NCBI GenBank assembly: GCA_910583995.1
Contig: CAJTYW010000003.1
Location: 80,492 to 144,491, forward strand
Direction of reading: 5' to 3'
Length of the DNA stretch: 64,000 bases
Source of the DNA: an uncultured Christensenella sp.
GTDB lineage: Bacteria > Bacillota > Clostridia > Christensenellales > UBA3700
Positions 2,232 through 49,915 of this stretch are shown here, piece by piece (the first letter of the stretch is position 1; each line of letters starts with the position of its first letter). The position numbers and the translations under genes were made by a program. The notes below the pieces were generated by a model. That model did no database searches and had not been told where the DNA came from. It saw nothing but the letters and a program-made list of their open reading frames with translations.

Positions 2232-2290
2232 GCTAAATTTAGGATAAAACAGCGTGAAATTCGACATTAAATTGTGTTTTTTTGTAAAAG

Positions 2291-2319
2291 TTGACAGCTA
2301 AAATGTGTTAAAATATTCT
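2291..2319 (+). promoter_or_regulatory. Candidate sigma-A promoter of the Spo0A-like gene (TTGACA-17-TATTCT), with a perfect 0A-box heptamer (TTCGACA = TGTCGAA reversed) at 2260-2266
   Basis: Hexamers read directly. 0A-box consensus TGNCGAA recalled from Bacillus. Confidence 0.45.
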
Positions 2320-2338
2320 TGTAAAAACAGGGGGTAGT

Positions 2339-2665
2339 ATGGTATACGATTATTTGTTAAAATACGGATTTAAAGCTAATAACATTGGATTTAATTATTT
2401 GGTAGATATCATTACTTTAGGTATTAAAGGGGAAAATTTAGAGCCGATGTCAAAAGTCGGATATAAGCTTATTGCGGATAAATACGGCAAAAATATTGCT
2501 ACAATTGAAAAAGATATACAAAATAGCATTAGCAATGCTTGGCTTTATGGTAACAATGATTTGTTGTATCAAACTTTTGGGGCAACTATTTCAGATGTAA
2601 AAGGAAAACCTACAAACAAACACTTTATTTATACTATGATTGAAAAAATAAAGTTTGAAATGTGA
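2339..2665 (+). CDS. Spo0A C-terminal (DNA-binding) domain protein lacking the receiver domain
   Basis: 108 aa. By eye it aligns with the Spo0A effector domain: IGFNYLVDII, IADKYGKNIATIEKDIQNSISNAW, GKPTNKHFIYTMIEKI (compare B. subtilis ...VERAIRHAIEVAW...KAKPTNSEFIAMVADKL). RBS AGGGGG. Sits immediately downstream of spoIVB. Confidence 0.8.
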   Translation: MVYDYLLKYGFKANNIGFNYLVDIITLGIKGENLEPMSKVGYKLIADKYGKNIATIEKDIQNSISNAWLYGNNDLLYQTFGATISDVKGKPTNKHFIYTMIEKIKFEM

Positions 2666-2781
2666 TTTTTCTTGTTTATCTTTAGTATAGCTAGTAAAAT
2701 TTGTAAATTTAAAACAAAATACGACAAATTTATAACATAATTAGCATAAACCAAAAATATGGTGCATATTGTATTTTTGGT

Positions 2782-3396
2782 ATGCAAGGTGGATTTCGTT
2801 GTAAAATAGATTATGTAATTGCAAGTTTGAAATGCTATATTAAAGAGCATAAAAAGTATTTGCTATGTTTAGGCATTGCAATAGCTTGTGGTTTTGTTTT
2901 GGGGATTATTATATGTTCTTTAAGAGAAAATATCACAAGCAAGTATAACTATATCGTACTTATTAGCAATGAACAATACAATTTGTTTGGAACTTTTATA
3001 AAAGTGGTGATTTTATCTATTTTTGGTATGGTATTTTGTTATCTTCCAATTTTTCACAAGTATTGTGCGCCACTGCCTTATATTGTATTGTTTTATACCG
3101 CGTATAGGTTTGGTGGAAGGTTAGTGGGACTAATAGTTGCAGATAAATTTGTGGGATTTATATGTATTATTACATTTACTATTCCGTTATACCTTGCAGT
3201 GATAATAAGTCTTATTTCGGTAAGTTGTATATGTGAATATTACAAAGCAAGCTGTGGCGGACGGGGAATCGTTTGTAAAAATATTAACAAACAAATACTA
3301 AAGTATATATTATGTGTTTGTGGATTATATATGCTTGCACTTATTTTGATTTGTATTATCATACCTGCGATTGCAAAATTTATTATAGTGGTATAG
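2782..3396 (+). CDS. Hypothetical polytopic membrane protein (start uncertain)
   Basis: Long ORF with about 5 hydrophobic helices. No convincing RBS at the tracked start and no family motif recognised. Confidence 0.5.
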   Translation: MQGGFRCKIDYVIASLKCYIKEHKKYLLCLGIAIACGFVLGIIICSLRENITSKYNYIVLISNEQYNLFGTFIKVVILSIFGMVFCYLPIFHKYCAPLPYIVLFYTAYRFGGRLVGLIVADKFVGFICIITFTIPLYLAVIISLISVSCICEYYKASCGGRGIVCKNINKQILKYILCVCGLYMLALILICIIIPAIAKFIIVV

Positions 3397-4329: not shown

Positions 4330-4531
4330 AGCTCTCAAAATTATAAAAGTAGCGATTTTTGACGAGTTTTTATAAAAAATTGTTTATTAATTGGCTAATT
4401 ATTTGATTATCAATAAATGTAAAGCAAAAAATAATTAATTATTTTGATTTATAGTATATAAAAAATGCAGTTAATAAATGTGTATAACTTCTTTATATTA
4501 TCACAAACTACCAGTAGTAAGAGGTGAGATT

Positions 4532-5665
4532 ATGAAGAAGTTTTTTTATTGCTTAGTTTTATTGATTACAATGTGTGCGGTATTTGCCTGCACAGGAATG
4601 ACTGCAAAAGAACAAGTTGTTGGGTCTGACAATTGTTATATGGTTGACTTTAACAGCGGAAGAGTGCTTTATGCAAAAGGTGAAAATGATAGAAAACCTA
4701 TTGCAAGTATGGTAAAAATAATGACATTACTTTTAACTTTTGAAAATGTTGATAGCGGTAAGCTTTCACTTGACCAAAAGGTAACTATTTCACACGATGC
4801 AGCAAAACAAGTCGGTTCAGAAATGTTCCTTGACGAAGGACAAGAATATCCTTTGTCAGATTTGGTAAAAGGTATTGTTACAATGAGTGCAAACGATGCT
4901 TCAGTTGCTGTAGCAGAATTAATTGCAGGTGATGAAGTAGCTTTTACAAATGTAATGAATGAGAGAGCAAAAAGCCTTGGTATGAATGATACTTTGTTTG
5001 CAAATGCAACAGGTTATCCTACTAAAGAAGAGCAATATTCTACTGCAAAAGATGTAACTTGTATGATGAGAGAACTTGCTAAACATAAAGAATATTACAA
5101 TTATTCTACAGTTTGGTTAGAAGATTATACACACCCATCAGGCAGAGTAACTCAAATGGCAAACACTAATAAGCTAATAAGACATTACAAAGGCTGTGAT
5201 GGTGGTAAGACAGGTTATACAGATAGTGCTAAGTTTTGTTTAGCGGGTACTGCTACAAGAAATGGTATGAGAGTAGTTGGTAGTGTGCTAGGTGCAAATG
5301 ACTCAAAAGCAAGATTTAGAGCAATGTCAAGTTTGTTTAACTATTCTTTTAATAACTTTAAACAAGTTGTATTGGTAAAAGGCGGTTCACCACTTAGCGT
5401 AGATGTTAAAGTCAACGGTGGTAAAAAAGATAAACTTAGTGTGATTGCAAAAAATGATTTATCTGTATTGCAAGCTCGTGGCGAAAATAACGCTAAACTT
5501 GAATACAACATTCCTGAAAGTGTAAAAGCACCTATAAATTGCGGTGATAAGATTGGCGAAGTATACGCAATAGTAGACGGCAAAAAAATTGCAGTATGCG
5601 ATATTTTGGCTGGTGAAGAAATCAAAAAAGCTAGTATTTGGGATTACGTTAAAAAAATAATGTAA
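4532..5665 (+). CDS. D-alanyl-D-alanine carboxypeptidase (peptidase S11, PBP5/DacB-DacF type)
   Basis: ATG after AGAGGTGAG. Signal peptide, SMVK (SxxK), SAND (SxN) and KTGYT (KTG) motifs, C-terminal PBP5_C-like region. Confidence 0.9.
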   Translation: MKKFFYCLVLLITMCAVFACTGMTAKEQVVGSDNCYMVDFNSGRVLYAKGENDRKPIASMVKIMTLLLTFENVDSGKLSLDQKVTISHDAAKQVGSEMFLDEGQEYPLSDLVKGIVTMSANDASVAVAELIAGDEVAFTNVMNERAKSLGMNDTLFANATGYPTKEEQYSTAKDVTCMMRELAKHKEYYNYSTVWLEDYTHPSGRVTQMANTNKLIRHYKGCDGGKTGYTDSAKFCLAGTATRNGMRVVGSVLGANDSKARFRAMSSLFNYSFNNFKQVVLVKGGSPLSVDVKVNGGKKDKLSVIAKNDLSVLQARGENNAKLEYNIPESVKAPINCGDKIGEVYAIVDGKKIAVCDILAGEEIKKASIWDYVKKIM

Positions 5666-9380: not shown

Positions 9381-9956
9381 ATGGAAAACTTCTTATGGCA
9401 AAAAACTTTGTTGGATATGTATCATACTTTTGATAGAATTGTGATTATATTGGACAATAAATTCAATCGACTGGTGTCAAATTCACTGCATAACAATAAT
9501 ACTACTTTTTTATATGATGAAATGTTGACTTTTATGGCAAGAAAAAACAATTGTTTGACGGCAAAATCAATTGTTTGTAATGCTTTAGATAAATTATCTG
9601 CTACAAATCAAAATATTTTAAAATTTTATTATAAAGACAAAATGTCCTTTAAGGACATTGCAAAGAAAGAACAAATAAACATCAGACAAATTTTTAGGAA
9701 TTTTGATAAGGAATTATCAAAGTTTGCCTATTATTTATCCCAAGATGGTTATGACACCACGGTTATTGAAAAAGAGTTTGGTTCAGATAATCTGTTTGCC
9801 AATACTTATCAAAGATTAGAGAAAAAGGCAAATGACAAGGCAAAGACTACTATCCAACTTACAGAAGTATATGTTGATAACAAAAATAAAAATTATCAAT
9901 CTACTTCAAACTTTGTTAATGAAAATTTTGTTGCCGTCAATTCTTTTATTCGTTAA
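9381..9956 (+). CDS. Phage late-gene transcriptional activator, ArpU/RinA-like (sigma-70 region-4-type HTH)
   Basis: ALDKLSATNQNILKFYYKDKMSFKDIAKKEQINIRQIFRNFDKELSKF matches the sigma region 4 pattern. Lies just upstream of the terminase block. Start chosen after GGAGG; ATG 9369 is also possible, while TTG 9348 falls at or before the predicted TSS. Confidence 0.65.
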   Translation: MENFLWQKTLLDMYHTFDRIVIILDNKFNRLVSNSLHNNNTTFLYDEMLTFMARKNNCLTAKSIVCNALDKLSATNQNILKFYYKDKMSFKDIAKKEQINIRQIFRNFDKELSKFAYYLSQDGYDTTVIEKEFGSDNLFANTYQRLEKKANDKAKTTIQLTEVYVDNKNKNYQSTSNFVNENFVAVNSFIR

Positions 9957-9990
9957 GTAAAATGAGTATTATACTACATTTTTTATTTTT

Positions 9991-10018
9991 AACACTCTTT
10001 AACGGAGTGTTATTTTTT
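9991..10018 (+). terminator. Intrinsic terminator after the activator gene (makes it monocistronic)
   Basis: Stem AACACTC / GAGTGTT followed by ATTTTTT. Confidence 0.75.
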
Positions 10019-11000: not shown

Positions 11001-12431
11001 ATGAGCGAAAAAATCGATGACATAGTAAAAAGGATTCTCAGTATTGAAAGAGAAGAGATAAGACGTAAAAATAAAAATTGTCTACAGTATTATAATACGG
11101 GAGAAAAAGTTCATAAAAAACAGCTTGAGTTTCACAAGTGTTTAAAACGCAATCGCTGGGTATTTGGTGGTAACAGAAGCGGCAAGACAGAGTGTGGTGC
11201 GGTGGAAGCAATATGGTGGGCAAGAGGGATTCACCCATATAGAGAAAATAGACCTAATACAATTGGTTGGGTTGTATCATTGTCATACGAAGTGCAAAGA
11301 GATGTTGCTCAAGCAAAAATATTACATTATTTAAACCCAGATTGGATAGAAGATATTGTAATGATGTCAGGAAGAAAAGGAGCACCTGAGTATGGTATCA
11401 TAGACCATATCGTAATTAAAAATGTGTTTGGTGGTTTATCTAAAATAGGGTTTAAAAGCTGTGACCAAGGAAGAGAAAAATTTCAAGGAACATCGCTTGA
11501 CTATGTTTGGTTTGACGAGGAACCGCCTTATGATATTTACGAAGAGTGCATTATGCGTGTGCTTGATAGGCGCGGGGAAGTATGGGGAACAATGACCCCA
11601 CTTAAAGGACTGACTTGGGTGTATGAAGAGATTTACCTTAATAAATCAAATAATCCTGAAGTATGGCATATTCACATTGAATGGGGGGATAACCCATTTT
11701 TGAATAAAAAGGAAGTGGAATTACTTACAAAAACATTGAGTAGTGAGTCTGTAGATAGCAGAAGATTTGGTAATTTTTCGGCAGATAGCGGGCTTGTTTA
11801 TCCTGAATTTGACCCTAAAACTCATATTGTTGAGCCGTTTTCAGTGCCAACAGAGTGGCAGGATAACATTGCTATTGACCCGGGGCTTAACAACCCGCTT
11901 GCTTGTTTGTTTTTTGCAGTGGACTATGACGGAAATATTTATGTTGTAGGGGAACATTACGAAGCAGGACGGGATATTGACTACCATACTGAAAAGATTT
12001 TTGCTTTGGCAGATAAGCTAAATTGGCATAGAGATAGCAAAGGCAGGCTTACAGCACTTATTGATAGTGCAAGTAAACAACATACCTTGGCATATAGCAA
12101 AAGTGTTGCAGAACTTTTTTATGAAAAAGGCATTGTGGTAAATCCTAATGTTAACAAAGATATGTTTAGTGGTATAGCAAGAGTTAAAGAATACCTTAAA
12201 GCTAGACCGCAAAAAATATTTATTTTTAAAAACTGTGTAAATCTTATAAGAGAATTAAAGTCATATTGGTGGTCTAATGGTGATAACCCAAAAAAGGTGG
12301 ACGACCATACACTAGATGCACTCAGATATTATATTATGACAAAGCCATCACTTAATGAAAGCAAACTAAAAGAGCTAAGTGAGATTGAAAAGGACAAAAC
12401 CAAACTTATGAGAAGATTGAGAAGGTTGTAA
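11001..12431 (+). CDS. terL: Phage terminase large subunit
   Basis: Walker A-like GGNRSGKTECG, Walker B LDYVWFDEE, C-terminal nuclease-type DDHTLDALRYY. Confidence 0.9.
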   Translation: MSEKIDDIVKRILSIEREEIRRKNKNCLQYYNTGEKVHKKQLEFHKCLKRNRWVFGGNRSGKTECGAVEAIWWARGIHPYRENRPNTIGWVVSLSYEVQRDVAQAKILHYLNPDWIEDIVMMSGRKGAPEYGIIDHIVIKNVFGGLSKIGFKSCDQGREKFQGTSLDYVWFDEEPPYDIYEECIMRVLDRRGEVWGTMTPLKGLTWVYEEIYLNKSNNPEVWHIHIEWGDNPFLNKKEVELLTKTLSSESVDSRRFGNFSADSGLVYPEFDPKTHIVEPFSVPTEWQDNIAIDPGLNNPLACLFFAVDYDGNIYVVGEHYEAGRDIDYHTEKIFALADKLNWHRDSKGRLTALIDSASKQHTLAYSKSVAELFYEKGIVVNPNVNKDMFSGIARVKEYLKARPQKIFIFKNCVNLIRELKSYWWSNGDNPKKVDDHTLDALRYYIMTKPSLNESKLKELSEIEKDKTKLMRRLRRL

Positions 12432-12474
12432 ATGGAGCATTTAACTAATTATTATAAGTGTCAAGGGGGAGAAA

Positions 12475-12798
12475 ATGGCTGTTAAAAAAAGCAAACGTGA
12501 AATTATGCTAGATACGCTTTATAAAAAAGGTATAGGTTACAAGACGGAAGAAATTGTGGAAGAGTACGCAAGCGAAGAAAAAGGCGGAGAACTTTTAAAA
12601 AGGAAAGTAACCGTAAAAAATGTGCCACCCGATGTTGTAGCATTAAAAGCGTATCTTGATATTTCCAAACAAGCGGACGAATTTAACAATTTGAGTGACA
12701 GCGAATTGCAGGCTGAAAAACTCAGATTGCTCAAATTATTAAAAAATATGGAGGATAAAAATGAAACTGGCGAATTTGAAAGTAAAGGTAAGGTGTGA
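12475..12798 (+). CDS. Phage hypothetical protein (possible small terminase / DNA-recognition subunit)
   Basis: 107 aa, basic N-terminus and coiled-coil C-terminus, adjacent to terL. The assignment is positional only. Confidence 0.4.
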   Translation: MAVKKSKREIMLDTLYKKGIGYKTEEIVEEYASEEKGGELLKRKVTVKNVPPDVVALKAYLDISKQADEFNNLSDSELQAEKLRLLKLLKNMEDKNETGEFESKGKV

Positions 12799-12988
12799 TT
12801 TCGGACTTTGTAAAAATACTGCAAAGTACGAAATTTATGAGGACGGAGTGCTAGCACGCAGAAAGATTTATTTGTGTGAAGATTGTGCAAAACAAATGTT
12901 TGAGTTGTTATCAAAAGAGTTTGTGCCTAAAAGTCCGATTAATGTAATAAACAGGTCAGTAAAAAGACAAGGAGAAAAGTTGCAATGA
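12761..12988 (+). CDS. Phage small Cys-pair (zinc-ribbon-like) protein
   Basis: RBS GGAGGA. CDFGLC ... CEDC pairs. Overlaps its neighbours on both sides. Confidence 0.5.
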   Translation: MKLANLKVKVRCDFGLCKNTAKYEIYEDGVLARRKIYLCEDCAKQMFELLSKEFVPKSPINVINRSVKRQGEKLQ

Positions 12989-14862
12989 AAAAAATAGATT
13001 TTGCAGAAGATATTGTTAGAGAAGTTTTACAAGACTTTGAAAGAATAAGCGATGAGAGAAAAGCGCTTGAGAGCCAATGGCGACTTAATATGAATTTTGT
13101 GCAAGGCAATCAATATTGTGAAATTTCTCCTGTCGGCGATGTTGAAGACTATGGAAAGCAGTATTTTTGGCAGGAAAGAGAAGTGTTTAATCATATTGCA
13201 CCTATTATTGAAACAAGGCTTGCAAAACTTGGAAGAGTACAAGCAAATGTAAGTGTGCGTCCGTTTAGCCAAGATGAAAAAGACATTAATGTTGCAAAAC
13301 TTTCCACAAGTGTTTTAAAAACCATTTCTGAAGAAAACAAGCTGTCTGAAATAATGATGCAAAGTAATATTTGGAGTGAGATTTGCGGTAGTGTGTTTTT
13401 TAAGGTGATTTGGAATTCGGAAAAAGGTAGAGCAATAGGAGAGACCAAAGATAAAAAGCTTATTAAAGAAGGGGATATTGATATTGTTTTATGTCCGCCT
13501 TACGAAATTTTTCCGGATAAAATAACTAACAATAGCATTGAAGATTGCAAGTATTTGTATCACGCAAAAGTTTATTCCGTAGAAGAAGTAAAAGAGCTTT
13601 GGAATGTTGATGTAGAGCCACAAACTCTTCAGGTATTTGGGTTTGACAATGTGCCTAATGGTGGTGGGCTTGGCTATACTGCAAACAATGCAAGATATGC
13701 GACTTCGAATAAAGAAAATTCCTGTCTTGTAATTGAAAAGTTTGAAAGGCCTTCTAAAAAATACCCTAAAGGTAGACATATTATTGTTGCGGGCGAAAAA
13801 TTAGTTATTGCAGAAGATTTGCCATATCAAACGGAACAAGATGGCGGTTATGGATTGCCTTTTGTCAGAAAAACTTCGCTTGAGAGTGTAACTTGCTTTT
13901 ATGGTTTAAGTATTGTTGAAAGAATTATTCCTGTACAAAGAGCATACAACGGAATTAAAAATAAAAAGCACGAGTTTATGAATAGGATAGCAATGGGTGT
14001 GCTTGCCGTAGAAGATGGTTCTGTTGATACGGATAATTTGGAAGAAGAAGGGTTGTCGCCAGGTAAAGTTTTGATTTATCGTGGTGGTTGCAATCCGCCT
14101 AAAATGCTAAATATGGGCAGTGTGCCAAGCGAATTTGACAGTGAAGAAGCAAGGCTTGAAGATACATTTGTTAATATTACAGGCGTAAGTGAATTTATGA
14201 GAAGTTCCAGCCTTCCTGCAAATGTAACTTCAGGTGTTGCTATCGGATTGTTACAAGAGCAAGATGACACAAGAATATCTATGTCCGCTGAATCTATAAG
14301 AAGTGCGGTAAAATTGATTGGACAATTGATTTTGAGATTATACAAACAATTTGCTGTTTCAAGAAGATTAAAAAGAATTGCAGGGGATAACGGAGAAATA
14401 CAATTGCTTTATTTCCAAGGTTCGGATTTGGCGTCAGATGATTTGGTATTTGATACAGATAATGAGCTTAACGAGACACCTGCTAACAGAAGAAGTATGG
14501 TAATTGAACTTGTTAAAATGGGAATGTTTAGAGACTCTGACGGCAATATGAGTGAGAGAAGTAGGCTTAAACTTTTGGAAATGCTTGGATTTGGTAACTG
14601 GGAGTCTGTACAAGATATCAACGAATGCCATAGAGTAAAAGCACAAAAAGAGAATTTGGATATTTTGCTAAAAGACATATCCGCTATGGAATATGACAAT
14701 CACCAATTGCATATTGATGAGCATATAAAAGCAATTATCAACGAAGAAAATAAAGAGCGTGTACAAAAATTAGACGCACATATTAAAGAACATCAAATGT
14801 TGCTTGCAATGACAAGTATGAATAACAATTTATTAATGGAGGACAATAATGCAGGAGAATAA
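12985..14862 (+). CDS. Phage portal protein
   Basis: 625 aa, positioned between terminase and scaffold/capsid. Size and order are typical of portals. Confidence 0.75.
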   Translation: MKKIDFAEDIVREVLQDFERISDERKALESQWRLNMNFVQGNQYCEISPVGDVEDYGKQYFWQEREVFNHIAPIIETRLAKLGRVQANVSVRPFSQDEKDINVAKLSTSVLKTISEENKLSEIMMQSNIWSEICGSVFFKVIWNSEKGRAIGETKDKKLIKEGDIDIVLCPPYEIFPDKITNNSIEDCKYLYHAKVYSVEEVKELWNVDVEPQTLQVFGFDNVPNGGGLGYTANNARYATSNKENSCLVIEKFERPSKKYPKGRHIIVAGEKLVIAEDLPYQTEQDGGYGLPFVRKTSLESVTCFYGLSIVERIIPVQRAYNGIKNKKHEFMNRIAMGVLAVEDGSVDTDNLEEEGLSPGKVLIYRGGCNPPKMLNMGSVPSEFDSEEARLEDTFVNITGVSEFMRSSSLPANVTSGVAIGLLQEQDDTRISMSAESIRSAVKLIGQLILRLYKQFAVSRRLKRIAGDNGEIQLLYFQGSDLASDDLVFDTDNELNETPANRRSMVIELVKMGMFRDSDGNMSERSRLKLLEMLGFGNWESVQDINECHRVKAQKENLDILLKDISAMEYDNHQLHIDEHIKAIINEENKERVQKLDAHIKEHQMLLAMTSMNNNLLMEDNNAGE

Positions 14863-15448
14863 TACAGTAGAACAAATAGCTGAAGTAACACCGGATACAA
14901 CAATTGAGTCTCAAGAAATAGAACAAACTCAAGCGAATGACAACATATCCGACAATGAAGAAACAGCTGTCTCTTATGGTAAATTCAAGTCAGTAGAGAG
15001 CTTATATGAAGGATATCAACAATTACAAAAGGAATTTACAAAAAAGTGTCAAGTATTAAAGGAACTTGAAAATCGTGTTGGAGATAATAAACATATTCTA
15101 GATAAAATGATTGAAGTAAATCCTGAACTAGGGCAATTTGCAGATGAGCTTAAAAATGTCAGCGATGTAAGCGGTATAAGTTTAAAACTAGCCGAATTGC
15201 TAGCTGGCAAAATCAACGAGCCTTGCAATATTATAAATGACGAGAATTTTTTGAATAATTATGTTTATCAAAACGAAGGTATAATTAACAAAATTGTATC
15301 CGATTATTTGGATAGTCTTGTCAGTATAAAAATTCCGCAAACAATTTCAAAAGGCGGAAATTCGTATGTGTCGCCTACATACAGACCGCGTACTTTAAAT
15401 GAGGCGGGTAAAATGGCGAAAAAATTTATAGAAACACGGAGATTTTAA
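14849..15448 (+). CDS. Phage scaffolding protein (putative)
   Basis: 199 aa, acidic and helical, immediately upstream of the capsid gene. Confidence 0.6.
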   Translation: MQENNTVEQIAEVTPDTTIESQEIEQTQANDNISDNEETAVSYGKFKSVESLYEGYQQLQKEFTKKCQVLKELENRVGDNKHILDKMIEVNPELGQFADELKNVSDVSGISLKLAELLAGKINEPCNIINDENFLNNYVYQNEGIINKIVSDYLDSLVSIKIPQTISKGGNSYVSPTYRPRTLNEAGKMAKKFIETRRF

Positions 15449-15451
15449 AAT

Positions 15452-16615
15452 ATGGTAAATTTGGAAACAGCAGATAAAGCGTTAAAAAGTGTATATTTGG
15501 GTGTAGTTACTGAGCAATTAAATGCACAAGTAAATCCATTGCTTACAAAAATCGAACAAACTTCAAGTGATGTTTGGGGTAAAGATATTATTAAAGTTGT
15601 ATCTTATGGCTTAAATGGTGGTGTTGGTGCAGGTGACGAAATCGGTAGTCTACCTATGGCAGCAGGTAACAACTATGCTCAATATAAATTGGAGCTTAAA
15701 AACCTTTATGGTAGCATTGAAATTTCAGATAAGGCAATCAGAGCTTCTCAAAGCAATGTTGGTGCTTTTGTTAATCTTCTTAACGCTGAAATGGAAGGTT
15801 TGTTAAAAGCTTCTAAGTATAATCTTGGTAGAATGCTTTATGGCGATGGCGACGGCAAGCTTGCAAATGTTGCAAAAGCAGCAACTGCAGCTACAAACAC
15901 TATTAGCTTAACAAGTGTTAAAAAAGTTGCAATTGGTATGGTTATTGACGTTATTGATAACAGCGGTAGCAAGAAAGTATCTCAAGCTAGAATTATCGAT
16001 GTTGATAGAGCAACAAAATCAATCAAAATTGATAAGCAAGTATCAACTCTTGCAACTACAGATTATATCACTATTCAAAACTCAAAAGGTTATGAACTTA
16101 CAGGTTTAGGTGCGATTTTTGGCACAAAAGACATTTATGGTTTAAAGAGAAGCGAAAACACTTGGCTTAATCCATATACAAAAAATGTTGGCGGTACACT
16201 TGATATGGGTACTATTCAAGAAGCAATTGATTTTGTTGACGAAACAGCAGGTTCTGCAGTTAACTTTATCACTTGTGCTTATGATGTTAAAAAGGAATAT
16301 ATCAAAAACTTGTCTGCTAACAGATTGAATGTGGATTATATGACTTTGGACGGCGGCTTTAAAGCTTTGTCTTACAGCGGTATTCCTCTAGTAAGCGATA
16401 AGTTTATCGAAGGTGGTGAAATGTATTTATTAAATACAGATGACTTTAAAATGCACCAACTTTGCGATTGGAGATGGCTTGAAGGGGATAATGGTAATGT
16501 TATCAAACAAAAACTTGGTAGTCCTACATATACTGCTACTTTGGTTAAATATGCTGATATTGTTTGCGACAGACCTTGTGGTCAAGCAAAACTTACCGGT
16601 ATTGTGTGTGAGTAA
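15452..16615 (+). CDS. Phage major capsid protein
   Basis: 387 aa, positioned after portal and scaffold, good RBS. No protease gene is present. Confidence 0.75.
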   Translation: MVNLETADKALKSVYLGVVTEQLNAQVNPLLTKIEQTSSDVWGKDIIKVVSYGLNGGVGAGDEIGSLPMAAGNNYAQYKLELKNLYGSIEISDKAIRASQSNVGAFVNLLNAEMEGLLKASKYNLGRMLYGDGDGKLANVAKAATAATNTISLTSVKKVAIGMVIDVIDNSGSKKVSQARIIDVDRATKSIKIDKQVSTLATTDYITIQNSKGYELTGLGAIFGTKDIYGLKRSENTWLNPYTKNVGGTLDMGTIQEAIDFVDETAGSAVNFITCAYDVKKEYIKNLSANRLNVDYMTLDGGFKALSYSGIPLVSDKFIEGGEMYLLNTDDFKMHQLCDWRWLEGDNGNVIKQKLGSPTYTATLVKYADIVCDRPCGQAKLTGIVCE

Positions 16616-16618
16616 TTT

Positions 16619-16987
16619 ATGAAAGAGCTTAGATTGATTAGTACGAATTGTTATAATATTCCCGAGCGTGTTAGAGAGTTAGATGACGATTACAGATTGT
16701 ATTATAATGTTAGACGAAATGTAATTGAACTTCATAATTTAAGACATATTCCTACCTTTCAATTAGTGCTTCCGTATAGTCAATTGGATACGCGTACTAT
16801 TGAATATATAAGGCGTACCAGAGTAGATAAAATTATAAACGAAATAAAAGAGATTGATGAGTATAATAATAATTTGGAAAATAAACTAATCAATCAAACT
16901 CTTGACGAAATTCACGAAAAAACCAAAAGCGTAATAAACTATATGAATAGGGGTGGAAGTCAAATTCCCTCCTATTCTGAATTGTGA
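16619..16987 (+). CDS. Phage hypothetical protein
   Basis: ORF in the tightly packed structural block. Confidence 0.55.
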   Translation: MKELRLISTNCYNIPERVRELDDDYRLYYNVRRNVIELHNLRHIPTFQLVLPYSQLDTRTIEYIRRTRVDKIINEIKEIDEYNNNLENKLINQTLDEIHEKTKSVINYMNRGGSQIPSYSEL

Positions 16988-16996
16988 GGGGATAAT

Positions 16997-17539
16997 ATGA
17001 AGGTTGAAGATGTTTTGACAGAAGTGTTGATAAGGTTAGGTGACAGGGATAAGTATGACATTATGAATTTGCCACAAGACGATGAAGAAATCAATACAAT
17101 AGTTAAATGTATTAATATGGTTATTTCTGAAATAGCAAGTGACTATTTGCCTGTTGAATTTGAAGAAGAAGTGGAAGTAATTAATGGTGTTATACCTTAT
17201 GATAATTTGTCAAAAAAATTGATTAATTTAAAAAATGTCACTAAAAACTCAACAAAAATCGACACTAAAATGTACCCTAATGAGCTTTTAGTTAAAGCTG
17301 ACGGTATGGTACGAGTGCAATATATGTATATGCCGAATGCAGTAAAACTTGGGGATATTATTTCACTTTCTCCTAAAATTACACTTATGCTTATCGTGTA
17401 TGGTGTGCTAGGAGAGTATTGCTTGCTACAAGGTAGATATGAAGATTCTAGCTTGTATGACAAAAGATATCGTGAAATGCTTAAAATTGCTTGTAGGGTT
17501 ACAAAAGAAATAAAGTTAAAACACGGTTGGTGGAATTAA
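16997..17539 (+). CDS. Phage hypothetical protein (possible head-tail adaptor)
   Basis: RBS GAGGGG. Positioned after the capsid gene. Confidence 0.5.
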   Translation: MKVEDVLTEVLIRLGDRDKYDIMNLPQDDEEINTIVKCINMVISEIASDYLPVEFEEEVEVINGVIPYDNLSKKLINLKNVTKNSTKIDTKMYPNELLVKADGMVRVQYMYMPNAVKLGDIISLSPKITLMLIVYGVLGEYCLLQGRYEDSSLYDKRYREMLKIACRVTKEIKLKHGWWN

Positions 17540-18876
17540 TGAAAAGAATTTATTACAAAAAATTTGTAAGTACCCGAAAGGTTAAGGTTGCGAATTTTAA
17601 AGGTGTAAGTCGTGACTGGTATTCAAAAAGCTTGCCTATTGATTTTGCTTTAAAACAAGAAAATCTAAAGATTGTTAATGGGGCATTGATTCCGTCAATG
17701 TCTCCAAAAAGCATTGAGCTGACTTTTGACGAAAGCATAAACAAGGTAATTCCTTTTTATGATAATGGTACTAAATTATTTGTCGCTTGCAGTGATTCAA
17801 ATTACATAATAGAAGAAAATAACGGCGAAATAATAAAAACGAAAATTGAAAAAGACTGCGAAATAATAGATAGTACCAATTATAAATATGGCGAAGATAA
17901 CTTTGTGATTTTAGCAACAGATGTCGGCGTTAAAAAATTAATAGGTGGCGTGATTGAAAGTAGCGATGTAGATTTGAAATTTAGCAATATTTGCAATCAT
18001 TTTTACAGAATATTTGGTGCAGAAAAAAATTCGACTAAACTACTTTTCAGTGACGATTTTGCACCATTTAACTGGGAGCAAAGTATTGACGAAGGTGGAT
18101 ATATTAATTTATCTTTTGACTATGGCAAGATAACAGACATTATAAGTTTTAATGAATATCTTGTGGTATGTCAGGAAGATTGTTTTACAAAGATTACTGC
18201 TTATTCTGAGCAGGATTCCTTTGTTGTAAAAACTATAACTTCGCCAAGTAACATTAAGGAAGGTAGCACAGTAAATTGCGGAAGTCAGGTAATGTATGCA
18301 ACTGGTAACGGATTTGGTATTTTTGACGGATATGATTGCAGAACAATTTGCGAAGAACTTGCGGGATTTTTAAAAGACTCGGATATTGAATCAGTTGCAA
18401 CAAGCGATTATTGTTATTTTTTGTGTAAGGACAAGTCTAGCGATATTAAAAATAACTATATTATTGCTTATAATTTGCTATACAGAGATTATCATTTTAT
18501 AACGGAAAATGAAGCTGAATTTCTTGTAAAAGTTAAGTTTAATGGCGAAGAAAAAGTGCTTATCGTATGTGACAAAGAGATAAAAGTTTTGTCAGCGGAT
18601 ATTAATAGCAGTAATAAAATATGGCGTTCAGGCAGTATTGATTTTGGTAATTCTGCAGATTTTAAACTTTTAAGAAGAATAGAGTTTGGTGGTAATACCA
18701 TTATTGATTTAAAAATTGCAGTAGACGGCAAAAATTATTTTTTTAATATCACAAATAAAAGAAGTCAACTGCTGAATTTAAAAGGTAAGGAGTTTGAAAT
18801 AGAAATTGCACCAAAAGGTAGAAATATCAATGTTCCGTCACCTGTGATTGAATATTCAGTATTGGAGGAAAATTAA
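17539..18876 (+). CDS. Phage hypothetical structural protein, 445 aa
   Basis: ATG overlaps the previous stop (TAATG). Beta-rich sequence with no motif recognised. Confidence 0.55.
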   Translation: MKRIYYKKFVSTRKVKVANFKGVSRDWYSKSLPIDFALKQENLKIVNGALIPSMSPKSIELTFDESINKVIPFYDNGTKLFVACSDSNYIIEENNGEIIKTKIEKDCEIIDSTNYKYGEDNFVILATDVGVKKLIGGVIESSDVDLKFSNICNHFYRIFGAEKNSTKLLFSDDFAPFNWEQSIDEGGYINLSFDYGKITDIISFNEYLVVCQEDCFTKITAYSEQDSFVVKTITSPSNIKEGSTVNCGSQVMYATGNGFGIFDGYDCRTICEELAGFLKDSDIESVATSDYCYFLCKDKSSDIKNNYIIAYNLLYRDYHFITENEAEFLVKVKFNGEEKVLIVCDKEIKVLSADINSSNKIWRSGSIDFGNSADFKLLRRIEFGGNTIIDLKIAVDGKNYFFNITNKRSQLLNLKGKEFEIEIAPKGRNINVPSPVIEYSVLEEN

Positions 18877-19241
18877 TGAATAAGTTAAGCAATGTGCTTG
18901 AAGAGTTGGAAAATAAATTTGATAGACTAAGACAAAAAGTTAAACAAAGCAAAGTTATTTGTAAAAACAATACAGAATCAAGTCCGCAAATAGTATTTGC
19001 TCATAATGTGTATGGAGCAAATAAAATTTTAACCTACGATATTACTGTAAGTGCTTTAAAGCCTGTTAATATTGTTATTAAACTTGATGATGTAATTATA
19101 AGTACTGTGCAAGGACTTATGGCGTATGGTGAAATATTGCTTAAGTCAAATAAACTTTATAGTCTTGTAGTTGAATGTACAGGTGAGAGTATACTTGCCG
19201 GCAAGCTTAAACTTGAGAGTGCTGACCTTAGGGTAATATAG
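18876..19241 (+). CDS. Phage hypothetical protein
   Basis: TAATG overlap with the upstream gene. Confidence 0.55.
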   Translation: MNKLSNVLEELENKFDRLRQKVKQSKVICKNNTESSPQIVFAHNVYGANKILTYDITVSALKPVNIVIKLDDVIISTVQGLMAYGEILLKSNKLYSLVVECTGESILAGKLKLESADLRVI

Positions 19242-19249
19242 GAGTAAAT

Positions 19250-20218
19250 ATGGGAATTTTTAAGGAAATCAGTGACTGGTGGAATGATTTGTTCAAAGAC
19301 GATGTCACCAAAGAACAAGAGCAAAAAATGATTACCGAACTTGCAGGAATGGAAGCTAAAGAAAGAGAAAGATTGGAAAATATCGTCAAAGAATATGCAG
19401 CTAGCAACAGACCGCAAGATTTGGAATTTGAATATCTTGAAGAATATGTACCTATCGATAATGAAACATTAATGGATAAAAGTGAAAAGCAATATTCTGA
19501 AATTTACAATGCCGAAAAAGATTTGGCAAATGAAAAATATCAAGAGAAACTAAATAAAGTAGAAGAAACCGAAAAAGGTTACATAGATAATGCAGAAAGT
19601 AAAAACAACAATTATAAAGAAAAGTATAAGGACAAGACAGAGAGTTTTAAATCTACTGCAAGCAAAAATGGAATTGCGGATTCTTCTATTATGGGTGCAA
19701 AATCTGAAGACTTGAATAATGAAAGAGACAGATACATTGATGATGTAATGAAAGCTTTGCAAAGCAAATTGAATAGCACTGCTAATAAAAAAGAAGATAT
19801 TCTAAACGAAAAGAATTTGAAAATTCAAAATTTGGATAGCAACTTTACTAAAAATGTTGAAGACTTGTTTAATAAATATCTAAAAGAAGAAGAGAATAAG
19901 GTTAAAGAAGTTGAAAAAGCAAATAAAGATACCGCTAATAAGGAAAAAGCTTACAAAGAGTATCAAGACAGAATAGTAAAAGAAAAGGCCAAAGAAATGG
20001 AAAACCTTCAAAAGGAAATGAAGGAAAAGGAAGAAAGGGGAATATACGAAGACCCTACTCGTGAAGCAGAATATGATAAAAGATTAGAAATAGCAAGAGA
20101 TTTTTATAAAGGGTTTACAAAGAAATCTGCTATAAAAGCTATCCAGGAAAATAGTACTTTGCAAAAGTTTTTAGGATTGAATTATTATAGATTGCTTGAG
20201 GAAATTCAAAATGGATAA
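19250..20218 (+). CDS. Phage Lys/Glu-rich coiled-coil protein
   Basis: RBS TAGGAG. Long K/E-rich heptad-like sequence. Confidence 0.55.
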   Translation: MGIFKEISDWWNDLFKDDVTKEQEQKMITELAGMEAKERERLENIVKEYAASNRPQDLEFEYLEEYVPIDNETLMDKSEKQYSEIYNAEKDLANEKYQEKLNKVEETEKGYIDNAESKNNNYKEKYKDKTESFKSTASKNGIADSSIMGAKSEDLNNERDRYIDDVMKALQSKLNSTANKKEDILNEKNLKIQNLDSNFTKNVEDLFNKYLKEEENKVKEVEKANKDTANKEKAYKEYQDRIVKEKAKEMENLQKEMKEKEERGIYEDPTREAEYDKRLEIARDFYKGFTKKSAIKAIQENSTLQKFLGLNYYRLLEEIQNG

Positions 20219-30290: not shown

Positions 30291-30486
30291 ATATCCCTCT
30301 TATAAAGCATATAATTACATTTTGATTATACACTAAATGTTAAAAAAAGTAAACATTTTTCTTTTAATTTTAAATTTGTCTTGCAAGTTTATGGAAATTA
30401 TGCTACAATAATTAGGATATTAAAATAATTATTTATAACAGCAAATAGTAGTTAATTGCTGCATATATATGACTAGCGGAGGCAAT

Positions 30487-31659
30487 ATGTCTAAAAATAA
30501 ATTTGTAAAACCTAATCAAGATTATATGCCTGAAGGGGATAGCAATCTTTTACAAAAAGATATTGAAGAATTGGGTTTAAGTGAATATACTTTGTCAAAA
30601 CTAAAAAGTGTGGAAATTTGTAAAATTATAGATTTGGCAAGATGTCAAATGAAACACTTATATAAAATCCCTGGAATGAATAAAAAAAACATTTTTGAAG
30701 TTCTTAAAAAATTGCAAAATGCAGGTTTGGATTTGAAAAGGTCGCCTGTTTTAGCGACAGTGGCAGAAGAAGGCTTACATAGCAAAAACGATGCAAAAGA
30801 TAATAGCGAAAGTGTAAAAGTCACAGGTAATCAAGACAAAAAAGCGGATAATAAAAAAAATAAGGACAATAAAAAGGAAAATATTGCTAAAAATAAAGGT
30901 AAAGGACAACCTGTAGTTGCAGAAAACAATACTGCGGAAATAGGGGCAAAGCAAAATAATAAAAACTTTGACAAAAAAAATAAGCAGGATAAAAAGAATA
31001 ATTCTGATATAAAACAAAATCAAAACAATGATAATAAAGTTGCTTTTGGAAATAAGAAACAGGCTATACCACAAAAACAAGTAAAAGTGGGAAATCCTAA
31101 TCCGATAAACAACTCTCCGCAAAAGCCACAAGCTGAGCCTAAGCGAATGAAAGTTAACAGCTATGATATTGATTCATTTATAAATGAAAATACATCTGGC
31201 AAGAAAACTTTGAAACAAGAGAGAGAAGAAAAAATTGCAAAAGCAATAAAAGATTTGCCACCTGTTAAAAATGCTGACGGACTATATAAATTTTACAGAC
31301 ACGGCAAATGGGGATACAAGACAGAGTCAGGTAAAGTGGTAATAGAACCAACTTATACAGAAGCTTTTAATTTTAGAGAAGGGCTTGCTTGTGTGGAACT
31401 TGACGAGAGATGTGGTTTTATTAACAAACAAGGTGAAATTGTAATTCCTATTCAGTATGATACAGCTTGCAGTTTTAGTGAAGGTGTTGCATCTGTAACA
31501 AAAGGCGACAAATGCGGTTATATAGATAAGGAAGGTAATATTGTTTTTGATTTTGTATATGAAGCTGCAACTTCTTTTGAAAATGATATTGCACTTGTTA
31601 AAAAAGACGGCAAATGGGGTTATATGGATAGAAAAACAGGAGAAATTAGACTTAGATAA
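30487..31659 (+). CDS. Protein with RNA-polymerase-alpha-CTD-like helix-hairpin-helix domain, N/K-rich linker and C-terminal WG (KWG) repeats
   Basis: ATG after GGAGG. IEELGLSEYTLSKLKSVEICKIIDL...IPGMNKKNIFEVLKKLQNAGLDL resembles the RpoA CTD. Repeats GKWGYKTESGKVVIEP, CGFINKQGEIVIP, CGYIDKEGNIVF, GKWGYMDRKTGE. Confidence 0.7.
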   Translation: MSKNKFVKPNQDYMPEGDSNLLQKDIEELGLSEYTLSKLKSVEICKIIDLARCQMKHLYKIPGMNKKNIFEVLKKLQNAGLDLKRSPVLATVAEEGLHSKNDAKDNSESVKVTGNQDKKADNKKNKDNKKENIAKNKGKGQPVVAENNTAEIGAKQNNKNFDKKNKQDKKNNSDIKQNQNNDNKVAFGNKKQAIPQKQVKVGNPNPINNSPQKPQAEPKRMKVNSYDIDSFINENTSGKKTLKQEREEKIAKAIKDLPPVKNADGLYKFYRHGKWGYKTESGKVVIEPTYTEAFNFREGLACVELDERCGFINKQGEIVIPIQYDTACSFSEGVASVTKGDKCGYIDKEGNIVFDFVYEAATSFENDIALVKKDGKWGYMDRKTGEIRLR

Positions 31660-45293: not shown

Positions 45294-48200
45294 TTAATCC
45301 TGGTGTTTTTGGTTAATGTCACGTTTTTGTGCATTAGCCTTGTTGTAGTCGACTCTGTTTCTATTATAAGTTTCTGTGCCTTTTTCGTTAAAGTTGCCTT
45401 TTCTTGAGAATTTATCAAATACATTGAATTTCTTAAGTGCAAATATTACAACAACGATTATTAGTAGTAGACCGATTATACCAGTAGTGATATAAAGCCA
45501 TAGTAATGGGTCAAGGTCTTTTACTTTTTCTTCTTCAGGGTCTTTATTCAAGTCGTCTTCAGTAAATACTATTCTGTGTTTGTATTCAGTAACAGTTTTA
45601 TCAAACTCAAATTTGCTTTCGTCGTCGCCGCTAGCAGGGTATTTATCTTCAGGTACTTGTTCGTTAAATCTATCTTCTGTAATTTCGCTTATAGCTACGT
45701 TATCTACAAATAGGTAACCAGAAACATAATTATCTTCACCTGAAGTACCAAGAGAAACACTTAATTCAACATTGTCAATATCTGCATTATCTTGAGTTGC
45801 AACGAAGAATGAATATTTTTTCCAAGCTCCGTTAGTATTTACTTTAATACCTCTTGCATCGTTACTAGAGAACTCGTAAGTTGAATTGTGAAGTTTCAAT
45901 TGAATTGTAGCATTTTTATCTTGTATTTCGTAAGTTAATACATACAAGCTAATTTCATAATACTTGTTTTCTGTCAAGCTGTTTTCAGCAAGAGTAGTAG
46001 TATAAGTGTATTCTGATTTAGCATTGTTGTGAATTACTAATACATTGCTGTTGCTAGAACCTTCAATACTTTCTTGATAATTAGTGAAGTTGAAGTGTGG
46101 AGCAGTGTTCATAATTTCAAGAATCTTATCAAAGTCTATACCTTTGTTAGTCTTGCCTTCTTCATATTCTCCACCAAACCAACCAGAACTGCTGTGGTCA
46201 CGATTGAATACACCTGCAATAGATTTGCCTTCGCCGTCTGGAGCATCTGTATCAGCGTGTGAACCTGTCCAACCATCTGGAGTATCTAGTTTCTTATCGT
46301 CACTATTATCTGTAGAGTTGTCAAAAGTTGTAGTGCTAAATGTAGTTGCAATTTCAGTTTTTTCATTTAAGTTTTTAATTAATTTTTCGTACAAGTCTTT
46401 GTTTGTGATTTCGTTAAATGAAGGTCTGTCAAAGAAGACTGTTCCGCTTGAAATTGAATCTTGATTATCACCAAGTTTTAGTTGAAGATAAACTGTTGAG
46501 TTGTCAAAACCTGCATTGATATAAAATTTATATTCATCCCAACCTGTAGTGTCAGCTGTTATTGTAAAGCTTTCAATATTTGTTTTTGAAGAAGATTGCA
46601 AGTTGATTGTTGCAGTAGTTCCTTCATACAAATAAGCCCAAACAGATAATTCGTAATATTTACCTTTTGACAAACTGATTGAAGGAGAAGTGAAGCCCCA
46701 AGGTTTATCAATTTGGCTCTCAAGTGCTTTTTGAGTGCTGATAACAAGTACATTATCATTGTTTTGAGCAACTTGTGAATTCCAGCCTGCCATAATGTCG
46801 TTTACTTTTAGCAAACCTTTTTGATAAGTGTTGTTAACATTATAAACTCCTGCATAAAGGTCTTTTAGATATTCTTTAGAAGAAGTAGTCCAACTTAATG
46901 GTAAACCGAAAGTAGCTTTAGTATTTTTGTCTAAGAAATCTTTCTCATCAAAATCGTCATATTCTGTTTTAGTAGCAGAAATATCAACTTGGTTGAACTC
47001 TGCATTTGAAATGTTAAGACTTTCTGATTTGAAAGAATGTTTTTTAACATAATCACCTGAAGATTCAGAGTTGTAATCAGAGTAGTTAACTTTGTACATT
47101 TCAAAATCTTTGATAGAAACTTTACCTTTTACAAGTGTGTCTGGGGTTAAGTTGCTACCGCTACCCATAACAATTTCGTAGTAAATTTCGCTTGTTTCTT
47201 TTAAATCACCTTGAATTAAAAATGCAAATTCTATATAACCATCGCTGTCAATATCGTCGTCTTCTAGTCCTTCAGAGTTGAACTCACTTATTTTGGTGAT
47301 TTCTGTATCTTTACCATCTCTTACTTTTTTGTAAAGGATAATTTCAACACCTTTATTTTCGTCAATTAATTCTGTTTTAACTTTGAATGATAATCTGTAG
47401 TGATTATTTGCTTCAATAGTTATAAGGTTTTTATATTTATATTTAGTAATACTAGGTTTTTTGTTTTCAAGTGTAATAACTTGATTGCTTGAAGTTAACT
47501 CACCACGATAACTATTTGGAATACCATCGTGTTTGTCATAGGTAGATTGTTCGTAGTTATTTGGATTTGTAATGATTGTGCTATCAAGCAAATTTTCGCC
47601 CAATGTAGATTCAAGATTTGCTTGGTAAGCTTCGTCAGCATTTTTATACTCATCTTCAGTGATAGTCTCTAAAGTAATTTCGTCAAAGAATGCTGCACCG
47701 ATTGCGTTATCGCTATGGTTTTTGCCACCTTTACCCAATCCTACTTGAACATAAATTTCTTTAGTTCTCTTTTGGTCACCTTGGATAAAGAAGGTAACTG
47801 CTTTCCATTCTCCGTCAGCTGAAACGATATTATCAATTGATTTGATTTGTTCGTTTTTATCTGTAGAAGTTTTTAGCATTACATAAGCACCATTTTGTTC
47901 AATATTTTTAGTTTGAACCCAAACAGTTAATTTGTAATAGTTTCCTGCAGAAATTTTTAATCTGTTATCAGACCTATATCCATAAGCAGTTGCCTTAATA
48001 TTGTTTAGCATTAAAAATTTGCTGTCATTGCCTTTTGGATTAACATTTTCAGCAATAGTAGGAATGCCTATAGCGTTTTTATCAATAACGCCGCGTACCA
48101 AATAGTCAGTACTTGATGGAGCAGTGTCACCATTTTCACCTGTGCTTGAAACACCTGTCCATTTACGAGCAGTGAATGGTTGTTCTGTACCACTAATATT

Positions 48201-49334: not shown

Positions 49335-49727
49335 ATGAGAGTAGAGCAAAAAATAAAGAAAAATAGCAAATTAAAATTTGTATTTGTGTCCATTGCAAGT
49401 AGTTTTGTAGGTTTAATTAATGGATTGTTAGGGGCAGGTGGTGGTTCGCTTGTTGTACCACTTTATGAGTCGGGTATGGATTTGGAAGCAAAAAAATCTC
49501 ACGCTACGGCAATTGCAACAATGTTGCCTACTTGTATAGTTAGCGGAATTATATATTTGTTAGGCGGTAACTTTGATTGGCTCAGTGGTGGAGTGATAAC
49601 TGCAGGTGTAATCATTGGCGGAATTATCGGTTCAATTTTGCTTAAATTTATAAAAAATGATTTTCTGTCATTGGTGTTTTATTTTATTATGATATATGCG
49701 GGAATAAAACTTTTGCTACCAAGTTAA
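49335..49727 (+). CDS. Half-size (4-TM) TSUP/TauE-SafE family membrane protein
   Basis: GLLGAGGGSLVVPL motif, four hydrophobic segments, 130 aa. Confidence 0.7.
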   Translation: MRVEQKIKKNSKLKFVFVSIASSFVGLINGLLGAGGGSLVVPLYESGMDLEAKKSHATAIATMLPTCIVSGIIYLLGGNFDWLSGGVITAGVIIGGIIGSILLKFIKNDFLSLVFYFIMIYAGIKLLLPS

Positions 49728-49915
49728 AAGCTGACATTACAATTGTGGATTTTATTGTTTATCGCAATAACAACTCGTGTTATTAGCTATGTTTTGAAAA
49801 CTTATAAATACTAAAATTGTAAAATAATGTCGATTTTCTACTTGCTTTATTAAAAAGAAAGTAGAAAATTGACAAGTTTAAAGGTTTAAAATTACATATT
49901 TAAAGGGGGAATATA

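Follow-up and report, generated by a model that had tools for sequence, protein, structure and literature searches.

Can a Spo0A that has lost its phospho-receiver be the Spo0A of its lineage? The question is raised by a gene for a protein of 108 amino acids (aa) that directly follows spoIVB in an uncultured Christensenella sp. (GenBank assembly GCA_910583995.1, contig CAJTYW010000003.1, positions 80,492–144,491 of the forward strand); this whole stretch of 64,000 nucleotides is called the window below, and coordinates count from its first letter. Textbooks use Spo0A to illustrate how a phosphorelay decides development, and to our knowledge a phosphorylation signal controls it in every spore-former that has been studied. 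The review view is that the Spo0A of all known sporulators consists of a receiver domain joined to the DNA-binding effector domain Spo0A_C (PMC6136694). A full-text literature search found no description of a receiver-less Spo0A orthologue, and neither the survey of sporulation genes by Galperin (2022) nor Davidson (2018) mentions one; proteins of this kind are already entered in public databases as "Spo0A C-terminal domain-containing protein."

A preliminary description of the window, made from its letters alone, had claimed a Spo0A reduced to the effector domain at the canonical spoIVB–spo0A position, and domain scans together with the 181-bp gap between the two genes bear this claim out. 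The gene, its domain content and its conservation can be described with near certainty. That the product is a phosphorylation-independent, self-regulating Spo0A, encoded by a spo0A orthologue shorn of its receiver, is in our judgement probable.

Domain Content of the Gene Product

The gene and the signals that delimit it are as follows.

1090–2157, + strand: spoIVB, encoding the S55 signalling protease, 355 aa (Peptidase_S55, 3e-66; TIGR02860, 4.9e-88)
2195–2231, + strand: intrinsic-terminator-like hairpin and T-run that ends the spoIVB transcript (12-pair stem at 2195–2222, then TTATTTTTTG)
2329–2334, + strand: ribosome-binding site AGGGGG, 4 nt 5′ of the ATG, with a purine-rich counterpart in relatives
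2339–2665, + strand: receiver-less spo0A, ATG start, 108 aa, Spo0A_C only (recognition helix at residues 53–70, KPTN at residues 90–93)

The profile search that the preliminary description had called for returns a full-length domain: residues 2–104 of the product span positions 1–104 of the 104 in Spo0A_C (PF08769), with E = 1.7e-22 and 79.8 bits against a Pfam cutoff of 25. Both the KPTN signature and the ATIEKDIQNSISNAW helix are present, and GKPTNK is invariant in the family, so that what defines the effector domain of Spo0A (full PF08769 profile and KPTN) is found entire. Response_reg (PF00072) has no match in the protein in a Pfam scan. The NCBIfam equivalog model of Spo0A, TIGR02875, aligns at its C-terminal positions 156–258 only (57.6 bits, under the 200-bit cutoff), and the receiver half is therefore absent; as a Spo0A equivalog the protein falls short in receiver domain, score and canonical helix. 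In the 181-bp gap to spoIVB each of the three frames is closed by stops (in the frame of the gene, the nearest is at 2309–2311), and the terminator-like hairpin lies there too (such sites number 2, against 0.2 expected); the gap thus has no space for a receiver domain and no trace of one, as had been argued at first sight of the locus.

Gene Order and Orthology

The genes downstream of the 108-aa gene are the following.

2782–3396, + strand: polytopic membrane protein, 204 aa, roughly at the place of SpoIIM in a canonical genome
3418–4329, + strand: shortened phosphopentomutase-like deoB gene, 303 aa (Metalloenzyme, 1.1e-06; phosphopentomutase models, 4.8e-14)
4478–5665, + strand: dacB-like D-Ala-D-Ala carboxypeptidase (Peptidase_S11, as annotated in L001 and L004)

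The order spoIVB, 108-aa gene, 204-aa membrane protein, deoB-like gene and dac is the same in two related loci (L001 and L004). Genomes that encode a 256–267-aa REC–Spo0A_C protein (L087 and L091) have the general arrangement (argR-recN-)spoIVB, spo0A, ..., (spoIIM-xerD-)deoB, pnp, dac, lysA or M50: in L087, spoIVB is followed by full-length spo0A, deoB, pnp and dac, and in L091, recN and spoIVB by full-length spo0A, ..., spoIIM, xerD and deoB. The window gene occupies the position that marks spo0A, directly after spoIVB, and because the gene order matches that of genomes with full-length spo0A it is to be regarded as the spo0A orthologue rather than as a phage gene or stray paralogue. At the level of sequence and synteny, it is identified as a true spo0A orthologue minus the phospho-receiver (REC) domain.

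Conservation Among Relatives

Of the 25 homologues from a first protein search, the ones whose alignment covers most of the query have 105–140 aa, and all matches with a precomputed Pfam annotation are Spo0A_C without a receiver domain. In a genome scan with one genome per GTDB species, 89 relatives were found and 80 loci fetched, nearly all of them from uncultured gut metagenome-assembled genomes (MAGs) labelled Christensenella, Christensenellaceae, Christensenellales or Clostridia. All 80 of the 80 fetched loci are receiver-less, with open reading frames (ORFs) of about 110–125 aa, so that the truncation, whose occurrence in relatives the preliminary description had left to be checked, proves to be general among them. 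In a few loci the ORF is longer through read-through from upstream; reading (as distinct from domain-scanning) these translations gave no hint of a receiver, and P0146, a database protein that resembles them, has Spo0A_C only. A family profile search retrieved 475 protein clusters at E ≤ 1e-5, and the best 120 of the 475 have PF08769 only, at 106–158 aa.

The adjacent genes are conserved with it: spoIVB adjoins the spo0A_C gene in most related loci, and dac is next to it in 81 sequences (the window and the 80 fetched loci; tblastn). In a distant clade the spo0A_C gene alone is inverted, and hence convergent with spoIVB, with gene order otherwise kept (examples are L058, about 9900–10000, and L034). 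Within 10 kb of spo0A_C lie spoIIGA (36 loci), sigE (50), sigG (49) and ytfJ (55), and most loci of the distant clade have these genes and also a PRC-domain gene; spoIIGA, sigE, sigG and ytfJ near the gene imply that the clade has kept at least the core sigma cascade.

The 108-aa gene is under strong purifying selection. The ratio of nonsynonymous to synonymous substitution (dN/dS) is 0.02 between the window gene and that of L007, and 0.02–0.12 wherever it is computable, at dS values of at least 1, where synonymous sites are saturated. Identity to L007 is 96% for the 108-aa protein, 82% for SpoIVB and 78% for the downstream membrane protein, which makes the 108-aa protein the best conserved of its neighbourhood. 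The window protein fits a receiver-less clade, defined here as "EKDIQN," whose members have about 105–140 aa, Spo0A_C only, an E-K-(D/N)-I-Q-N helix, the motif GKPTNK(H/Q)F, and adjacency to spoIVB and dac.

Fold and Recognition Helix

An AlphaFold model built with 27 family sequences has six helices and a mean pLDDT of 94.6, and in a Foldseek search significant matches in the Protein Data Bank are confined to structures of the Spo0A effector domain, one bound to DNA (1LQ1) and one DNA-free (1FC3), both at TM 0.86 and probability 1.00. The modelled 108-aa protein is thus shown to have the Spo0A effector fold. Within this fold the DNA-reading helix is altered. T-I-E-K-D-I-Q-N aligns to R-V-E-R-A-I-R-H of B. 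subtilis Spo0A (1LQ1), with E213 kept and R214 replaced by K58, R217 by Q61 and H218 by N62; the longer stretch T-I-E-K-D-I-Q-N-S-I-S departs from the canonical (S/T)-R-V-E-R-A-I-R-H-A-I-E. E213, R214 and R217 are said, in work on the 1LQ1 complex by Zhao and colleagues in 2002, to be base-contacting residues in B. subtilis Spo0A. The by-eye alignment to the Spo0A C-terminal domain in the preliminary description was sound as to the domain and the KPTN signature; the canonical recognition helix that it implied has to be given up, since the window has EKDIQN in place of ERAIRH, with K58 and Q61 at the positions of R214 and R217.

The altered helix is a family trait. In its core, E57-K58-D59-I60-Q61-N62, no family member departs from K58 or Q61, and E57 and N62 are almost as constant. 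Within the 150 top-ranking representatives from a survey of 1.84 billion proteins, the EK-x-IQN helix is confined to proteins of at most 204 aa, and ER-x-IR is found in those of about 240–280 aa; the REC domain is Pfam-confirmed in the three canonical-length proteins that were scanned. Past the helix, W-x-x-G-N-x-D...F-G-x-T...KPTN is broadly conserved, a segment that we take to be the sigma-A-activating surface.

Promoter and 0A Boxes

The 0A box is TGTCGAA, with specific contacts of Spo0A at G2, C4 and G5, and in C. difficile a box lies at −75 of spo0A and another at −78 of sigH (PMC3485338). Upstream of the window gene, the following elements were located.

2260–2266, − strand: distal 0A box TGTCGAA (TTCGACA on the + strand), 79 nt before the ATG; column conserved in 10 relatives
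2290–2296, + strand: proximal 0A-like box GTTGACA, also a −35-like TTGACA (2291–2296); GACA columns conserved
2306–2314, + strand: extended −10 element TGTTAAAAT (TGnTAAAAT), which holds the invariant columns of 10 aligned upstream regions

Motif statistics given here concern related sequences that were dereplicated and are not phylogenetically independent. The sole invariant columns in the 10 upstream regions are T2306, G2307, T2309, A2310, A2313 and T2314. The promoter proposed at first, TTGACA-17-TATTCT, is indeed present at 2291–2319 with 10 of 12 matches (promoter-like matches number 4, against 5.4 in shuffles), but its TATTCT is not conserved in the alignment, and the conserved −10 is instead the TGnTAAAAT element, with the TTGACA 12 nt upstream of it. 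A sigma-H-type promoter, AGGA...GAAAT at 2241–2260, was rejected as not conserved in relatives.

The proximal box lies 30 bp, or three helical turns, downstream of the distal one. At the position of the proximal box, L012 has a perfect TTCGACA, and L010 and L011 have TATGACA. Perfect TTCGACA boxes stand at −89, −79 and −69 in L001 and L012, and at −49 in L012 only, in a 10-bp phase; the window box is at −79. This phase presumably corresponds to the 7+3 tandem spacing of the abrB promoter and the 1LQ1 complex. L004 and L014 have one box each; near −78 there is TATGACA in L010 and TGTGACA in L011, and near −48 TATGACA in both. Across the family, 38 of the 69 upstream regions left after dereplication contain TATGACA (42 occurrences against 1.75 expected), at fixed distances, and of the copies of TATGACAA, 46 fall within the 260 bp before the gene and 158 in the other ~1.38 Mb. 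Further intergenic copies of TATGACAA, upstream of spoIVB in L067 and L070–L073 and beside the PRC gene in L005, are too few to indicate a regulon; a second maximum, some 2 kb downstream, is conserved coding sequence and was discarded as a regulatory site. Candidate 0A-type boxes in the gene's own promoter are thereby shown to be conserved and helically phased. Self-activation would be expected to show this layout, in which a box covers the −35 of an extended −10 promoter and phased boxes stand farther upstream.

The consensus of the family boxes, T-(A/T)-(T/C)-G-A-C-A-A-A-A, reads TGTCATA on the opposite strand, against the canonical TGTCGAA, the main change being G5 to A. One hypothesis is that the change of Arg to Gln in the helix is paired with that of G to A in the site, which would fit the usual recognition code; the pairing is weakened by the window's own clade, which joins the EKDIQN helix to canonical boxes. 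In a small sample of five long-form loci (three with canonical REC, two with the pseudo-receiver described below), the picture is mixed, with TGTCGAA at −46 and −106, or no box.

Two further observations concern the upstream region. The distant-clade spo0A_C genes have a GTG start about 7 nt past an extended −10 (TGnTATAAT or TATACT) and no Shine-Dalgarno sequence, which suggests a leaderless mRNA. In L009, a close relative (about 2550–3000), the spoIVB–spo0A_C spacer has grown to 958 bp, the added sequence being a long tandem array of ~14–15-bp units (GCTCACGCAAA(A)GACTT) with an assembly gap inside it.

Comparison With Known Systems

The canonical Spo0A (B. subtilis; C. difficile CD1214; TIGR02875) shares with the window protein the PF08769 fold, KPTN, the locus after spoIVB and a 0A box about 75–80 nt upstream, and differs from it in having a receiver and an ERAIRH rather than an EKDIQN helix. 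The closest functional parallels are engineered. In B. subtilis, sad67-type deletion of the receiver yields a constitutive Spo0A. The isolated Spo0A DNA-binding domain likewise binds genuine targets in the unphosphorylated state, so that the effector alone bypasses phosphorylation (PMC3485338). Both are laboratory constructs of a protein that needs phosphorylation in the wild type, whereas the window clade is receiver-less in the wild type; by analogy, engineered constitutive Spo0A should be the mechanistic precedent for the expected behaviour of the window protein.

Putative pseudo-receiver Spo0A proteins (~255 aa; P0172, P0288, P0290 and P0293, with P0286 in the same set) occupy the same recN-spoIVB-spo0A locus in L088 (6001–6774) and L092 (5001–5822), followed by one or more unannotated ORFs and then deoB, pnp and dac; their source labels include Tenericutes and Spirochaetales MAGs. 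The ORF past spo0A in L088 has 212 aa and is weakly similar to the window membrane protein, and L092 has two short ORFs there. Unlike the window protein, they keep an N-terminal domain of ~140 aa, in which Pfam recognises no REC and the acidic DD pair is missing, and they have an ERNIRN helix; they are likely to be phosphorylation-independent. With such a family at the spo0A locus, erosion of the Spo0A receiver may have occurred more than once.

GerE and the LuxR solos also use a response-regulator output domain as an independent transcription factor that is set by level, ligand or partner; they have the LuxR/FixJ helix-turn-helix fold, and none is orthologous to a developmental master regulator. 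Spo0A_C without a receiver is found, too, in phrog_24603 and in tandem proteins. The window protein matches phrog_24603 weakly, at 35.7 bits, and the genomic contexts differ, that of the window gene being chromosomal; the helices of the tandem proteins P0139 and P0140 are canonical or otherwise varied, none being EKDIQN. The tandem polypeptides of public metagenomes carry two to four Spo0A_C domains and no receiver (P0139, P0140, P0145 and P0151; P0139 has four domains in 454 aa, P0140 three in 394 aa). They resemble the head-to-tail arrays of Spo0A on tandem 0A boxes, here joined covalently, and no description of them was found.

Proposed Mechanism and Alternatives

Without a receiver and its phospho-acceptor Asp, no input is possible from kinases, from Spo0F/Spo0B or from Spo0E-type phosphatases. 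Freed of an inhibiting receiver, the protein is predicted to bind its boxes and contact RNA polymerase with no need of phosphorylation, as the isolated DNA-binding domain of Spo0A does in B. subtilis and C. difficile. With no phosphorylation step, activity would follow concentration and so be set by the amount of protein made. Feedback, activating or repressing, would be exerted on its own extended −10 promoter through the box that overlaps the −35 and the box or boxes at least 30 bp upstream. The Spo0A programme, probably sporulation, would be started by transcription or by a partner instead of by kinases or a phosphorelay. We give an even chance to the fuller statement that in at least 80 species-level gut Clostridia the sole Spo0A is a 108-aa kinase-free effector with a re-coded helix, a box shifted from TGTCGAA to mostly TGTCATA and a self-driven promoter, with entry governed by transcription or a partner.

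Several points weigh against this reading. Binding to canonical 0A boxes is not guaranteed, because R214 and R217, the base contacts named above, are changed to K and Q. The family boxes are heterogeneous, TTCGACA in the window's clade and mostly TATGACA elsewhere, and the window holds four 0A heptamers against 4.2 expected, which places a single box at chance level. Autoregulation, first suggested from the window box, draws its support from the phased boxes of relatives and the fixed position of the family-wide box: the window box exists and by itself says no more than chance. Each clade genome was viewed over only about 20 kb around the gene, all family members are uncultured MAGs, and besides spoIVB there is no other clear sporulation gene in the 64-kb window.

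The view of about 20 kb per genome bears directly on the possibility that the gene is an accessory paralogue, with a normal Spo0A encoded elsewhere and the receiver-less protein modulating 0A boxes as a competitor, co-activator or memory device. Stand-alone or multi-copy Spo0A_C is common in public data (6,985 matches, many of 110–130 aa or with 2–4 tandem domains). The receiver-less gene nevertheless sits at the exact canonical spo0A site, with the same neighbours on both sides, so that any full-length copy would have to be a relocated one; its 0A box lies at a distance like that of C. difficile spo0A; and the 86 fetched loci, ~1.4 Mb in total, contain no second Spo0A_C match. We regard an accessory role as unlikely.

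It is somewhat less likely still that the protein is a repurposed relic, serving a non-sporulating lineage as a constitutive transcription factor for other genes, the receiver having gone along with the developmental decision. Loss of sporulation is common among host-adapted gut Firmicutes, the clade has no cultured member, spoIVB is the sole unambiguous sporulation gene of the window, and both spoIVB and deoB are shortened. SpoIVB has been retained, however, at 82% identity to L007 and with the GALGH and GMSGSP motifs, which we take to bear its catalytic His and Ser; spoIIGA, sigE, sigG, ytfJ and the PRC-domain gene remain close by in most distant-clade loci, and the sporulation-type neighbourhood is kept across species whose proteins are merely 40–60% identical.

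A phage-derived Spo0A_C gene inserted beside spoIVB, which the preliminary description had allowed for as a phage-type paralogue, is very improbable. PHROGs contains a 111-aa stand-alone Spo0A_C family (phrog_24603, E = 1.6e-08), nine "Bacteriophage sp." records match the protein, and 8 kb downstream there is a phage-like head module. The gene is nonetheless in complete synteny with canonical spo0A loci, the phrog_24603 score of 35.7 bits compares with 79.8 bits for Pfam, and dac, an FGGY kinase and an FAD oxidase stand between the gene and the head module. The two of the nine records that were examined, MT835614.1 (L089, the best match) and MT835504.1 (L090), both human-faecal entries marked "UNVERIFIED: Bacteriophage sp." in GenBank, carry spoIVB–spo0A, the former also dac, and are for that reason bacterial chromosome fragments.

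A pseudogene or assembly artefact, that is, a normal spo0A recently truncated, can scarcely be credited: the gene is short and scores below the NCBIfam cutoff for Spo0A, yet the same architecture recurs in hundreds of protein clusters and in 80 species-level assemblies that are independent of one another, the gene has a promoter, ribosome-binding site and start codon of its own, all conserved, with all-frame stops and no receiver remnant upstream, and a dN/dS of about 0.02 at saturated dS disposes of the recent deletion that had been raised as a possibility at the outset.

Neighbouring Genes and Other Features of the Window

The window SpoIVB is short, at 355 aa against 405–454 aa in canonical loci, and its NCBIfam score of 295.8 is just below the cutoff of 305.25. 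The deoB-like product is likewise short (303 aa against about 390), with phosphopentomutase models matching its C-terminal half only; L087, L088 and L092 have a full-length Metalloenzyme gene at the deoB position. The 204-aa membrane protein has no Pfam or NCBIfam match, even at E ≤ 5. Homologues of ~180–210 aa adjoin spo0A_C in the close clade, and weaker ones do so in about 40 distant-clade loci; counterparts are at 10379–11002 in L004, 6811–7407 in L089 (where the start overlaps the spo0A_C stop), 10480–11052 in L005 and 6795–7433 in L088, the one pseudo-receiver locus that has such a counterpart. SpoIIM sits between spo0A and deoB in the canonical genome L091, and from its position the membrane protein may be a very divergent SpoIIM; an hhalign comparison of the two gave a probability of 2%.

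The compact phage-like head module (11001–20218, + strand) comprises these genes.

11001–12431, + strand: terminase large subunit (TerL)
12985–14862, + strand: P22-type portal
15452–16615, + strand: major head protein (phrog_14242, 1.3e-50)
19250–20218, + strand: DUF7934 protein

No integrase, tail or lysis genes were recognised in the module. TerL occupies one and the same syntenic place in L001, L004, L008, L010 and L011, with 83–94% identity, and the chromosomal genes that flank the module in L004 are only 33–60% identical. The module may represent a prophage that is widely shared and inserted at a fixed site, or else an element that has been domesticated or resembles a gene-transfer agent.

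Elsewhere in the window there are a 396-aa protein in which an RNA-polymerase alpha-CTD-like domain is joined to WG beta-repeats (30469–31659, + strand), a 1,239-aa ORF with no Pfam match (45294–49013, − strand), and a TauE split over two half-size ORFs, of which the first matches the C-terminal half of the profile (49335–50353, + strand).

Implications

The presence of spo0A serves as a marker of sporulation capacity in surveys of MAGs (PMC11536998). Predictors of sporulation based on marker genes or hidden Markov models class these abundant gut lineages as ordinary carriers of spo0A, a possible error in either direction. The altered helix together with the altered box provides a test case for how Spo0A reads DNA. 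If the proposed reading is true, endospore formation, or what remains of it in these lineages, could be started without any phosphorylation input, and the clade would constitute a natural experiment on bistability that arises from autoregulation alone.

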